From: a virus
Taxonomy: Duplodnaviria > Heunggongvirae > Uroviricota > Caudoviricetes
Strand: one strand, 5' to 3'
IMG/VR virus record: IMGVR_UViG_3300001919_000214
DNA length: 5,172 nucleotides
Part shown: positions 3,056-5,172 of the stretch, piece by piece
How the letters are laid out: the number at the start of each line of letters is the position of its first letter
Numbering within the stretch: the first letter of the stretch is position 1
Translations under genes and position numbers: made by a program
Notes under the pieces: model-generated
Databases searched by the model: none
Told to the model about the DNA's origin: nothing
Seen by the model: the letters and a program-made list of their open reading frames with translations, nothing else

Positions 3056-3454
3056 ATGAAATCTGAACTATTTCATAGCGAAGCAAATTCAGAAATTATC
3101 ACTGCAGATGAGTTTATTGATTTCATAAACTCTTTCAAAAAGCCTTTAATTTGCCAAATTTGCGGAAATCAATCATGGAGTGTAGTCGGTACTCTAGAAC
3201 TTGAAGTTGAAGACAATCAGCCAAAACATCACGTAATNNNNNNNNNNNNNNNNNNNNNNNNNNNNNNNNNNNNNNNNNNNNNNNNNNNNNNNNNNNNNNN
3301 NNNNNNNNNNNNNNNNNNNNTAAATTATCCTGGTGGTATGCCGCTGTTTCGAATCACCTGTGATCACTGTGCACATGTACTTCTTTTTTCTTATAAAAAA
3401 GCTAGATCATTGATCCAAAAAAGAAAAAATGAAAAAGAAGAGGATGGGAAATGA
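3056..3454 (+). CDS. Hypothetical small protein with two CxxC pairs (zinc-ribbon-like), 132 aa if continuous across the N-run
   Basis: ATG at 3056 with AGGA 8 nt upstream. CQICGN before the gap and CDHCAH after it lie in the same frame, supporting one protein. Basic C-terminal tail. Continuity across the 83 masked bases cannot be verified. AT-rich. Confidence 0.5.
   Translation: MKSELFHSEANSEIITADEFIDFINSFKKPLICQICGNQSWSVVGTLELEVEDNQPKHHVXXXXXXXXXXXXXXXXXXXXXXXXXXXXXNYPGGMPLFRITCDHCAHVLLFSYKKARSLIQKRKNEKEEDGK
3238..3320. other. Run of 83 N inside the putative zinc-ribbon gene
   Basis: Directly visible. Confidence 1.
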
Positions 3455-4083
3455 CGCGACCTTATCTCAGAGCAGTACCAAACTGTGGATCTGGTATTGA
3501 TAAGTGTGACCTTTACCCCAATGTTAAGAACAGGCTGCGCGTCGGTATAGAAGAAATGTATACTGATTTTATCGAATCCGCAGATGAAACTTACAAAACT
3601 GATGGGGGAAATAAAATGTCATCAGTTAGTCGAGAAGAAATTCAAGCACTTTTAGCTGCCAATAAAGCAGAAATGGAGTCCATTGCATCCTCTATTAGAG
3701 TTGAAATGGCTTTATCTCGCGAGAACACAAACGTTCAGCTAGCATCTCTAAATTCAGCCATCAATTCTATCTCTTCGAAAATCGAAGGCAAAATGGACAG
3801 TGTTGACGGGGATGTGAAGGCCATCAATGGTAGATTCGAAGGTATACAAGGCCAAATTACTGGAATAAATACAGCCATTAGTGGTATTCAATCTGGAATT
3901 TCTACCAGACTTGCTATTTTTGGAGTTATCATTGCGGTCATAGTTGCATTACCTAGCATAATTTCTGCTTTTAAAGATACTTCGCCAGTAGTTCAACCAG
4001 TTACACAACAATCAAGTGTTAAACATCTCAACCAAGAACCAATTACTCCACAAGTATTACCTCCGCAGGGAAAAGCAAACTAA
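3451..4083 (+). CDS. Hypothetical coiled-coil protein with a single C-terminal transmembrane helix (210 aa; alternative internal start at 3616 gives 155 aa)
   Basis: ATG at 3451 overlaps the upstream stop as ATGA, with GAGGA 6 nt upstream. Internal ATG at 3616 has GGGGGAA 5 nt upstream. Heptad-like Ile/Ser/Gly-rich segment, hydrophobic stretch LAIFGVIIAVIVALPSIISAF, then a Pro/Gln-rich tail. Architecture is reminiscent of XhlA-like or exclusion-type membrane proteins; this is low-confidence pattern matching. Confidence 0.65.
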   Translation: MTRPYLRAVPNCGSGIDKCDLYPNVKNRLRVGIEEMYTDFIESADETYKTDGGNKMSSVSREEIQALLAANKAEMESIASSIRVEMALSRENTNVQLASLNSAINSISSKIEGKMDSVDGDVKAINGRFEGIQGQITGINTAISGIQSGISTRLAIFGVIIAVIVALPSIISAFKDTSPVVQPVTQQSSVKHLNQEPITPQVLPPQGKAN

Positions 4084-4106
4084 ACCGGCTTTATGCCGGT
4101 TTTTTT
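4083..4106 (+). terminator. Rho-independent terminator closing the cI-linked operon
   Basis: Stem AACCGGC (4083-4089) pairs with GCCGGTT (4095-4101) around loop TTTAT; T-run continues to 4106, immediately after the stop at 4081-4083. Confidence 0.7.
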
Positions 4107-4198: not shown

Positions 4199-4251
4199 NN
4201 NNNNNNNNNNNNNNNNNNNNNNNNNNNNNNNNNNNNNNNNNNNNNNNNNNN
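4199..4251. other. Run of 53 N in the intergenic region after the terminator
   Basis: Directly visible. Confidence 1.
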
Positions 4252-4421
4252 ATTATCTACTTTTAGTTGTTGATTTTTGCTACTTTTGGTAGCAGAATTA
4301 TTTTAACGACAACGAACAGGCAGGACGCCCACGAAGTAGCCGCCTGGGGCATATGAAGTCCAGGATGATTCGTTGAGTCATGTTGTGCCACCAGGCACTC
4401 ATGTTAAAGCAGGTGTATGAA

Positions 4422-4697
4422 ATGAAAGTCCAGATTTTAAACAATAACTGTGAAGTCGTTTGGTCATACGACATAGCCGCCCCTGTAGATCAGAGCGGCG
4501 ATAGCTGGACCAATGGGAAACATCAGATTATGGCTGGAGTTGTGTTCTCTTTACGCCGTGCTTTGGAACAGGCTGAAGTATTTCCATCAGACCCTGAATG
4601 GAAATGGCCTTTTTCTATTTGTCCAAATTCGGAGAGCACATTTCAGAAAATTGGTCAGAAAGTCGCACTCGAAGAGCATCAGCCAACTGTTTCCTGA
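4422..4697 (+). CDS. Hypothetical protein (91 aa from ATG 4422; the ORF extends in frame to ATG 4380)
   Basis: AGGTG lies 6 nt upstream of ATG 4422. Codon pattern looks coding. No recognisable motif; not Arg-rich, so not an N-type antiterminator. Its last 83 bp overlap the convergent minus-strand ORF. Confidence 0.4.
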   Translation: MKVQILNNNCEVVWSYDIAAPVDQSGDSWTNGKHQIMAGVVFSLRRALEQAEVFPSDPEWKWPFSICPNSESTFQKIGQKVALEEHQPTVS

Positions 4698-4860
4698 TTT
4701 TTTCAGGTAACTCGTCGGCATCGCAGAAACAACAACGCTCGATCATGTTGAAAGCCGATTCGTAGAACTGTTTCCGCTGAGTGTCGCTGAGACAGGAAAA
4801 GAGCGACGTTACGATGATTTTATTAATTGCATTATCAAGTTCTTTTTCATCAAAAGTCAT
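4615..4860 (-). CDS. Hypothetical small acidic, Cys-containing protein (81 aa)
   Basis: ATG at 4860 with AGGA 7 nt upstream. Contains CCFC and a further Cys; no HTH seen. Overlaps the plus-strand ORF at its 3' end. Confidence 0.5.
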   Translation of the reverse strand: MTFDEKELDNAINKIIVTSLFSCLSDTQRKQFYESAFNMIERCCFCDADELPEKIRKQLADALRVRLSDQFSEMCSPNLDK

Positions 4861-5113
4861 TTGATTTTCCTTTTATGTATACGGGCTTAAAAGGATACCA
4901 CCGAGCCTGAAGTGGTGAAAAGACAGGCACATAACAGCTAAGTATTTTCAACCAGAGAGAATCCTTAGCGTTGTGGTGAATGCGGCTCAGCGCACGCGGG
5001 TTAAGGTTGAGGCTGACAGTCGACCTTCTGTGGATACCCACCCGTCTGGTGTGCAACCTTCGCCAGGCACCGGGAGGCACCCGGCACCACAACTTTATGC
5101 TGTGTGTAGTCCT
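4861..5113. other. GC-rich, hairpin-rich stretch with no credible ORF; candidate structured RNA or long structured leader
   Basis: The only ORF here (4850-5092, minus) gives an Arg-rich, low-complexity translation typical of noncoding GC-rich DNA. Several short inverted repeats are present (for example ACCAC/GTGGT around 4898-4917). Strand and function are undetermined. Confidence 0.3.
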
Positions 5114-5160
5114 GGCGGTACCAGTTTGTACACTTGCTTCCGGCTGGTACCGTCCTTTTT
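5114..5160 (+). terminator. Terminator-like hairpin with T-run on the plus strand
   Basis: 11-bp stem (5114-5124 with 5144-5154, one G-U pair), 19-nt loop, then TTTTT at 5156-5160. On the minus strand the same hairpin is preceded by A5, so it is not a minus-strand terminator. Confidence 0.55.
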
Positions 5161-5172
5161 ACAAAACAGAGA

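Follow-up and report, generated by a model that had tools for sequence, protein, structure and literature searches.

A divergent member of the STnc100/PasD RNA superfamily in the immunity region of a lambda-like prophage

We show here that a short stretch in the immunity region of a lambda-like (lambdoid) prophage carries, on the plus strand, a structured RNA that we assign with high confidence to the STnc100/PasD superfamily, as a divergent member of a group that we call class B. The stretch belongs to IMG/VR virus record IMGVR_UViG_3300001919_000214, a Caudoviricetes sequence of 5,172 nucleotides (nt) that was analysed as a whole and is called the window throughout; the RNA together with its terminator lies at 4970-5160. 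As an overall explanation we favour, with a confidence somewhat above even, a class B RNA that is derived from the early-left promoter pL, stable and active in trans. An initial annotation, made from the letters of the sequence alone, had singled out 4861-5172 as a GC-rich, structured stretch free of open reading frames (ORFs), ending in a terminator-like hairpin at 5114-5160 and possibly encoding a plus-strand non-coding RNA. The GC content is indeed 55.5% in 4901-5100, compared with ~40-44% in the adjacent 200-nt windows, and the coordinates of the hairpin were exact. The extent has to be narrowed, however, since RNA and terminator are confined to 4970-5160 and 4861-4969 is an AT-rich spacer.

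The family assignment starts from the covariance-model scan that the initial annotation had proposed. A permissive search against Rfam returned one relevant match, STnc100 (RF02076), at 4940-5162 on the plus strand and over the full model (1-206), with 41.2 bits and an E-value of 1.3e-6. Two sequence blocks that are common to more than 230 distinct relatives, GGUGAAU (4975-4981) and CACCGGGAGGCACCCGGCACCA (5068-5089), are present in the window. So are the features by which we delimit the superfamily, namely the closing helix P1, the hairpin P2 with a YNNGC loop, the hairpin P5 and a pseudoknot with the loop of P4, the last being a criterion set in this analysis and not by Rfam. From classical STnc100 the window departs in its score, which lies under the gathering cut-off, and in its place in the early-left region instead of the late region around Q, stx, esterase or lysis genes. 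The parts of the element are as follows.

4970-5093, plus strand: RNA core of 124 nt, matched by Rfam STnc100 with 41.2 bits; its minimum-free-energy (MFE) fold yields P1, P2, P4 and P5.
4970-4978 (GUUGUGGUG) with 5085-5093 (CACCACAAC), plus strand: closing helix P1 of 9 base pairs (bp), followed by the junction AAU at 4979-4981.
4982-4997, plus strand: hairpin P2, composed of GCGGC (4982-4986), the loop UCAGC (4987-4991), GC (4992-4993), a bulged A4994 and CGC (4995-4997).
5003-5009 (AAGGUUG) with 5054-5060 (CAACCUU), plus strand: pseudoknot, its 3' strand in the P4 loop.
5010-5044, plus strand: hypervariable insert.
5045-5051 (UCUGGUG) with 5061-5067 (CGCCAGG), plus strand: hairpin P4, with a 9-nt loop that includes the pseudoknot's 3' strand.
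5070-5084, plus strand: hairpin P5, CCGGG-AGGCA-CCCGG, near-invariant in the family.
5114-5160, plus strand: intrinsic terminator with the stem 5114-5126/5142-5154, a 15-nt loop, a C and U5156-5160.

The predicted folding energy is modest (plus strand: z = -2.0 at 4940-5165 and -1.8 in the core; minus strand: z = -1.25), and it is the comparison with relatives, that is the Rfam E-value and the covariation, and not thermodynamics that lifts the stretch beyond chance. Relatives were collected by scanning viral contigs and one genome per species with a 20-nt 3' block, complemented by a second scan with the 5' block of the window, and 233 distinct cores were extracted. For covariation across these homologous loci, which the initial annotation had also called for, 70 representatives less than 82% identical to each other were aligned with MAFFT. 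In P1, P2 and P5 all 1212 of 1212 cells are paired, where P1 was trimmed to its paired length and its outer columns are paired by construction; 11 pairs vary on both sides, giving 108 compensatory cells, a result that none of 500 shuffles equals and that no slid register comes near. P1 is 100% paired in the 70 representatives, and seven of its nine pairs vary on both sides. Three of the five pairs of P2 flip from C-G to G-C between the two classes described below, with no unpaired cell. P5 is likewise 100% paired; its middle pair changes from G-C to U-A in 4/70 representatives, and CCGGG/CCCGG becomes CCUGG/CCAGG in 10/24 class B sequences. P4 and the pseudoknot were examined by an anchored search with permutation and shuffle controls, because variable loop lengths break the register (24-46 of 70 rows paired per column) and make MAFFT and RNAalifold unsuitable for them. 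For P4, which ends 2-3 nt before P5, the anchored score is 13.7 compared with 5.3 +/- 0.73 in shuffled sequences (53 distinct 5' arms, 63 representatives). For the pseudoknot, complementarity to the own loop scores 14.95, compared with 10.77 +/- 0.31 for permuted partners (58 distinct strands, 63 representatives); an earlier, smaller set gave 17.8 versus 13.4 +/- 0.51, and none of 5000 permutations was equal. Both elements thus lie more than 10 standard deviations over their controls. A candidate class B helix P3 (4996-5001/5040-5045) is weakly supported (12.3 versus 10.1 +/- 0.55, 2/5000 permutations, n=11) and a local hairpin in the MFE fold competes with it; we left it out of the firm model.

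The comparison also settles the strand. Family-wide there are about 30 G.U cells in P1 and P2, and P4 of the window holds two G.U pairs; the fold is specific to the plus strand because each such pair would read as an A.C mismatch on the complementary strand. In relatives, the promoters and terminators on either side of the element are likewise in plus orientation, so that the view of a plus-strand structured RNA ending at the terminator holds. In the window's own lineage, variants turn G.U into G-C pairs or sit outside helices, the commonest being U5045C, which changes a U.G to a C-G pair in P4, and substitutions track helices, not codons. The terminator begins 20 nt past the core. Its stem, first read as 11 bp, has in fact 13 bp including three G.U pairs, while the run of five T (U5) after it was correctly seen; the hairpin folds with -23.8 kcal/mol (z = -3.3), 0/200 shuffles fold as well, and a simple terminator scan overlooked it because its loop is 15 nt long. 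Variants in relatives keep or improve its pairing (U5125C, U5153C, and G5114A together with C5154U). The same terminator module is found with 95-98% identity in Stx2 and cdtI phages.

The relatives fall into two classes. Class A, the classical STnc100 elements, carries the P2 signature CCCCC-UNNGC-GG(N)GGG and scores 68-147 bits, while class B shows GCGGC...GCACGC and scores 34-44 bits; standard pipelines overlook class B because these scores lie below the cut-off. In class A, 69/178 copies have a sigma-70-like promoter whose -10 box ends 3-8 nt before P1 (16.8 expected), and 116/178 are followed by a terminator no more than 90 nt away (12 expected). Published class A copies are placed in late regions, and PasD and STnc100 were reported to be structurally homologous (bioRxiv 10.64898/2026.05.13.724894). 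Class B is embedded in operons: in SfV, ST64B and the window between pL and the early-left genes; in Qin-type prophages exactly between DicF and dicB, with a P1 of 21 bp; and in P7 and D6 among the tRNAs of the C1-controlled ban operon. A long P1 of 21-22 bp occurs in at least 19 of the 52 class B copies and separates DicF from dicB there. The window type is unusual for class B in being followed by a terminator.

The 312-nt region is present in 2584/5426 complete E. coli genomes and in phages SfV, SfII, SfIV and others, and the core alone in ST64B with 88% identity. Hundreds of loci with the 3' block were found in Escherichia, Salmonella, Klebsiella, Enterobacter, Kosakonia, Citrobacter, Raoultella, Buttiauxella, Pantoea and Erwinia. 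The same core is followed by 3' flanks of at least four kinds; the same terminator, too, is found without the core. An unannotated class B copy lies in Qin, a prophage of E. coli K-12 MG1655, at ~1,649,442-1,649,593 (NC_000913.3; locus L349, 1943-2094), where it fills the dicF-dicB spacer directly after the DicF terminator. It has the signature GGUGAAUGCGGCUGAGCGCACGCGG, the same P4, pseudoknot and P5 (here CCUGG/CCAGG), a 21-bp P1 and 34.4 bits against STnc100; no terminator follows it, and the ribosome-binding site of dicB begins ~5 nt after its end. In the searchable dicBF literature this spacer element is not mentioned. P7 (L347, 3001-3116), like D6, has its copy, of 43 bits, inside the C1-controlled tRNA-terB-ban operon; P7 also holds at 2804-2888 a tRNA-like match to the tRNA-Sec model, 46.6 bits and under that model's cut-off. 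Classical STnc100 elements form arrays of 3-5 divergent copies ~200-270 nt apart, often adjoining phage tRNA clusters (L009, 2265-3380; L018, 342-1038; L256, 6323-7018).

At the position equivalent to that of the window RNA, the cdtI phage (L350, 2375-2488) carries a different element followed by the same terminator, a terminator that is also present in Stx2/Stx2c phages. The cdtI element has a near-identical P1 (GUUGUGGU/ACCACAAC), the AAU junction and a P2-like hairpin, and lacks P5; the loop CCAUAC of its P4-like hairpin is complementary to GUAUGG after P2. It has no Rfam match and its fold reaches a z of only -0.96. It may represent an additional branch of the family, one without P5. ST64B is the phage for which transcript data bear on the locus: expression of the plus-strand leader RNA STnc1310 increases ~10-fold under peroxide or nitric oxide stress, together with that of the downstream genes (PMC7067206 and its supplement). 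STnc1310 (L123, 3874-3947) is a short plus-strand RNA that ends at the pL-leader terminator, 65 nt 5' of the ST64B element. These data show that the leader is transcribed and induced; they measure the leader, not the element. A near-consensus boxA, GUGCUCUUUUC, stands in ST64B at 4299-4310, after the terminator of the element and just before the first early-left gene, and its homologue in the window type reads GUGUUCUUCUC (L001, 9372-9382).

The initial annotation had further considered that the RNA and the small genes next to it might make up an accessory system, and a retron or bridge RNA. The first idea is not supported, as the same fold stands beside late regions, in the dicF-dicB spacer, in the P7 ban operon and next to tRNA clusters. 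Retron, bridge RNA and tRNA are ruled out by Rfam, ARAGORN and the downstream gene content of homologous loci, in which neither a reverse transcriptase nor an IS110-type (DEDD) recombinase follows. ARAGORN found neither tRNA nor tmRNA, no Rfam tRNA model matched, and, as the initial annotation had noted, the region holds no tandem repeats.

A lambdoid prophage's immunity region makes up the window, and SfV, ST64B and E. coli SZQ1 share its gene order. Its features outside the RNA are the following.

Minus strand: the end of a replication gene, an ORF of PHROG-1170, a CII/YmfL-like gene and a cro-like gene.
Plus strand: a cI-type repressor gene (helix-turn-helix and S24 peptidase) and two ORFs (PHROG 4293 and PHROG 5820).
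4082-4102: terminator of the cI operon with an 8-bp stem, preceding the candidate pL.
4257-4269 (CTACTTTTAGTTG) and 4280-4292 (CTACTTTTGGTAG): two OL-type operators that match the operators of the cro-cI spacer at 2187-2199 and 2256-2268.
4270-4298, plus strand: candidate pL, TTGATT-17-CAGAAT, with an operator within its spacer and a presumed transcription start at ~4305.
4380-4697, plus strand: first ORF of the presumed pL transcript, 105 amino acids (aa) from 4380, full-length match to PHROG 3195 (E 8e-70).
4615-4860, minus strand: candidate ORF of 81 aa, full-length match to PHROG 3311 (E 7e-55), antisense to the presumed pL transcript.

The operator-like motif CTACTTNNNNTAG occurs, with at most one mismatch, eight times in the window compared with 0.67 expected, and 0/200 shuffles equal this. 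Its copies, which belong to the direct-repeat families D6 and D7, form two clusters, one in the cro-cI spacer (2187, 2256) and the other at 4257 and 4280. Just 3' of the candidate pL stands the leader sequence CGAACAGGCAGGACGCCCACGAAGTAGCCGCC, common to the pL leader of ST64B. From these motifs we infer a rightward pL at 4270-4298. The RNA lies 3' of this candidate promoter and of one small ORF, between the accessory genes on the cI side and the early-left genes; in homologous loci yfdP/Q/R-type early genes, xis and the phage's own tyrosine integrase beside tRNA-Thr follow downstream. The ORF at 4380-4697 is orf33 in SfV and a hypothetical protein in E. coli SZQ1, the NCBI Prokaryotic Genome Annotation Pipeline (PGAP) and the SfV annotation both using a later start, and its product is without an arginine-rich, N-type motif. 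It converges with the 81-aa ORF, with an overlap of 83 nt, and annotators differ on which of the two is called: the 81-aa ORF is annotated in phage vB_EcoM-720R4, not by PGAP and not in SfV. Of three runs of N, the one at 2203-2251 hides part of the cro-cI operator region, that at ~3236-3322 the middle of the PHROG-4293 ORF, and that at 4199-4251 the sequence just upstream of the OL operators; the last could conceal a third OL operator or a better -35 box of pL. At 504-692, repeated units of the TGACG/CAAAATCTGAC type give repetitive ORF translations and a spurious mir-5880 match (558-632), and the block looks like origin iterons within the replication gene, as in lambda. On the pR side, SfV (L122, 2263-2451) and ST64B (L123, 1409-1597) carry homologues of the C4 antisense RNA and of IsrK (64-82 bits), neither of which was seen in the ~2 kb of pR side within the window. 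In the spacer before the RNA, the small hairpin at 4897-4916, tested as a terminator or nut-like hairpin, is no better than shuffles on either strand. It is surrounded by a 45-nt module (4892-4937, hairpin ACCACCGAGCCUGAAGUGGU and GAAAAGACAGGC) that has 89-96% identical copies in Klebsiella phages and in Rac and is also found just 5' of other class B copies (L184, L236).

In the mechanism that we propose, departure of the cI-type repressor from the OL operators would allow rightward transcription from pL, the RNA being the 3' part of the first early-left transcript, and transcription would end at 5160. Core and terminator (~190 nt) would persist as a stable RNA, whose 5' end might stem from cleavage within the AU-rich stretch at ~4940-4960 or be the transcription start of a weak internal promoter. 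For such a promoter the local sequence offers little: at the spot usual in the family there is GAGAAT, which ends 7 nt before P1, with no -35 box and 6/12 consensus positions, and AAGACA-17-TATTTT at 4920-4948, picked by eye, reaches 8/12. The released RNA would act in trans; its invariant fold would provide a scaffold, for binding of a protein or for protection, and the hypervariable insert at 5010-5044 would be the lineage-specific part. This role is modelled on the characterised family members, for which association with Hfq and CsrA as well as chimeras with many mRNAs are described, and we favour a stable trans-acting RNA because these relatives are real RNAs that bind or depend on Hfq and CsrA. 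PasD1 and PasD2 were detected by northern blot, are stabilised by Hfq and have targets identified by RIL-seq (PMC8550237); PasD2 ranks first in abundance among the RNAs of CsrA chimeras (bioRxiv 10.64898/2026.08.12.744399); and cross-linking to Hfq was reported for EcOnc27/sRNA103, an RNA that overlaps STnc100 (PMC12711010). What all genomic contexts share is the core, made as a primary transcript or released from a longer one. That it can be a free-standing RNA is supported by the promoters and terminators of class A, by tandem arrays of up to five copies, by the copies beside tRNAs and by the P7 copy; next to DicF, the 21-bp P1 is long enough for a substrate of RNase III.

Several observations speak against this explanation. 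The Rfam score of the window stays under the curators' 47-bit gathering cut-off, and the candidate pL matches 8/12 consensus positions and falls under the threshold of the promoter scan. Class B copies have an own promoter in 3/52 and an own terminator in 4/52 cases, and many stand 15-40 nt 5' of a small ORF such as dicB, a pattern reminiscent of a cis-acting leader. A boxA-like tract adjoins P1 in several class B lineages. The U-tail of only five U is short for an Hfq-dependent small RNA, and the conserved part is a folded core instead of a single-stranded seed, which is unusual for an RNA that acts by base pairing. Finally, the evidence for expression, Hfq binding and targets all comes from other members of the family, not from class B.

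Part of these observations would fit a cis-acting regulator of elongation, analogous to nutL or putL, in which the RNA modifies RNA polymerase, alone or with Nus factors, and lets it read past the terminator at 5114-5160 (and past Rho) into the yfdP-xis-int genes. The position is suitable, 3' of pL and directly before a strong terminator that has to be passed for early-left expression. Between pL and the terminator no arginine-rich, N-like protein is encoded, and in ST64B this interval has no ORF at all. The tract UGCUCUUUC, which matches boxA (UGCUCUUUA) in 8/9 positions, adjoins P1 in 4/33 distinct class B flanks (0.1 expected), a boxA of at least 7/9 is found at the P1 edge in 7/33 (1.4 expected), and cdtI has the boxA-like GUGCUCUCA at the equivalent place. 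ST64B genes past two leader terminators reach about half the transcripts per million of the leader RNA. However, the window's own tract, GAAUCCUUA, matches boxA in 5/9 positions, which is chance level, and boxA tracts could merely shield a long untranslated leader from Rho. HK022, the sole phage known to use RNA antiterminators, has no related sequence. Class A elements have constitutive-looking promoters just 5' of lysis genes, where read-through would be lethal, hence the fold is no general antiterminator. In Qin and ST64B the element lies 3' of another terminator, whose read-through it could not aid, and the scarcity of terminators after class B copies (the 4/52 given above) points in the same direction. 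We regard such a cis role as unlikely for the window RNA, although it is the alternative that survives best.

A broader and slightly more speculative idea, which we also consider unlikely, extends the cis-acting function to a whole branch of the family. The STnc100/PasD fold would then work as a structured RNA with a protein or RNA polymerase as its binding partner, and not as a small RNA that pairs through a seed, and the operon-embedded forms (class B and the P5-less cdtI element), each with a boxA-like tract at its 5' edge, would constitute a second, unrelated family of phage RNAs for cis-acting antitermination or anti-Rho activity. They would serve early-left expression in lambdoid phages without N (SfV, ST64B, cdtI and Qin-type prophages), including expression of dicB in K-12.

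We find it improbable that the element is a mere processing or stability module of the polycistronic early transcript, with no function in trans. The fold would mark sites of cleavage, by RNase III in a long P1 or by RNase E in the flanks, and shield the upstream message at its 3' end, the downstream message at its 5' end, or both. Such a role would suit the P1 of 21-22 bp that parts DicF from dicB among the at least 19/52 class B copies with this feature, the P7 copies among tRNAs, the place of the window element at the 3' end of the first pL message and the known role of RNase III and RNase E in processing the dicBF transcript (bioRxiv 10.1101/2023.04.14.536235). Yet a processing site has no need of an invariant, multi-helix, pseudoknotted core, class A elements are stand-alone genes with nothing to process, and P1 of the window has only 9 bp. 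The published RNase III site of dicBF lies 5' of DicF and not in the element; a site 3' of DicF, considered as well, was discarded on the same literature.

That the stretch is a functionless 3' untranslated region with its terminator, or a joint of mosaic recombination, appears very improbable. The flanks do recombine exactly at the edges of the element, and the RNA is located 3' of the first pL gene, as the initial annotation had envisaged when it named the 3' end of an adjacent gene as the alternative that would undo its proposal. A passive region is hard to reconcile, however, with a core so conserved and covarying, in which 1212/1212 cells of P1, P2 and P5 pair with 108 compensatory cells at less than 82% identity, or with its spread over many enterobacterial genera and 2584 of the 5426 complete E. 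coli genomes. Least credible are readings as a minus-strand leader of the 81-aa gene, a minus-strand ORF or a frameshifted plus-strand gene: an 80-aa ORF with a TTG start does exist antisense at 4850-5092 (minus strand), with a weak and partial PHROG match as its sole family match, and PGAP and phage annotators call hypothetical coding sequences here, but the plus-specific G.U pairs, the z of only -1.25 on the minus strand and substitutions that follow helices contradict them, the PHROG match is a fragment of 23 residues outside the core, and the 81-aa ORF starts at 4860, 110 nt from the core. The PGAP feature is a pseudo-coding sequence named 'frameshifted hypothetical protein' that covers RNA core and terminator (window 4973-5172 onward; homologue L001, 9113-9432), and 'hypothetical protein' features overlap the sequence in the listed E. 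coli genomes. Neither the 80-aa ORF nor the pseudo-coding sequence is credible as a coding region because the helices covary, so that the stretch, although overlapped by both, is ORF-free in the sense that nothing credible is encoded. The protein features over the RNA are probably a mis-annotation that propagates itself.

Returning to the pL-derived, trans-acting RNA that we favour, the window element appears, as far as sequence comparison can tell, to be an unannotated divergent branch of a known prophage small-RNA family, placed in an early operon under putative repressor control. The STnc100 family and its link to PasD are already published. In the searchable literature, what seems to be new is the sub-threshold, operon-embedded class B, including the locus in the window and the K-12 dicF-dicB copy, together with the pseudoknotted architecture, supported here by covariation, and the repressor-controlled early-left location. 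For annotation this means that a fold present in about half of the complete E. coli genomes is overlooked by Rfam-based pipelines and called a hypothetical or frameshifted protein, and that the same oversight affects the K-12 copy in the long-studied dicBF operon. A conserved pseudoknotted scaffold with a hypervariable insert alters where targets or a 'seed' of STnc100, PasD and EcOnc27 should be sought; a link between EcOnc27/STnc100 variants and clinical outcome has been reported for O157 infections (PMC12711010). A subclass under direct repressor control would therefore be made at prophage induction, which offers a testable link between induction and host regulation via Hfq and CsrA. Alternatively, if the cis role should be true, the element would be a candidate answer to the question of how N-less lambdoid phages pass their early terminators.

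Among known systems, the closest is STnc100 itself (RF02076; EcOnc27/sRNA103 overlaps it, downstream of stx2B), with which the window shares the sequence blocks, P1, P2, P4, P5 and the pseudoknot, a terminator and the occurrence in prophages of Enterobacteriaceae. In contrast to STnc100, P2 of the window has the opposite composition (GCGGC...GCACGC instead of CCCCC...GGNGGG), there is an extra helix and an insert, no promoter adjoins P1, and the location is an early-left operon instead of the late-region site flanked by Q or stx on one side and by lysis genes on the other. PasD1 and PasD2 of enteropathogenic E. coli E2348/69 are the superfamily members with experimental support and lie near Q, lpxR, esterase and lysis genes; their relation to the window runs via STnc100 only, by the structural homology reported in bioRxiv 10.64898/2026.05.13.724894. 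The K-12 Qin copy resembles the window in being class B within a repressor-controlled early-left operon, and differs by its 21-bp P1 and by having no terminator after it. The put RNAs of HK022 are structured, cis-acting antiterminators in the early operon of an N-less lambdoid phage, located 5' of terminators (PMC9378689). They are ~70 nt long with two stems, lie at the start of pL and are present on both the pL and the pR side, whereas the window element has 124 nt, is pseudoknotted, lies ~660 nt from pL and occurs on the left side only; an Rfam scan of the HK022 immunity region with E up to 1 gave no STnc100-like match, and the two have no relation in sequence or in Rfam. With the lambda nut and rrn boxA sites, some class B relatives share a boxA-like tract directly 5' of a hairpin-closed element of the pL transcript. 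Unlike lambda nut, however, the window has no N-like protein, its 'boxB' would be a multi-helix RNA of 120 nt and its tract has 5/9 boxA positions. Small RNAs derived from 3' ends that bind Hfq, and DicF, share a terminator with the upstream message as the window RNA does; for the latter, release by processing is our proposal, and DicF is made by processing in the same kind of operon. These RNAs are short with a conserved single-stranded seed, whereas the window RNA conserves a folded core.

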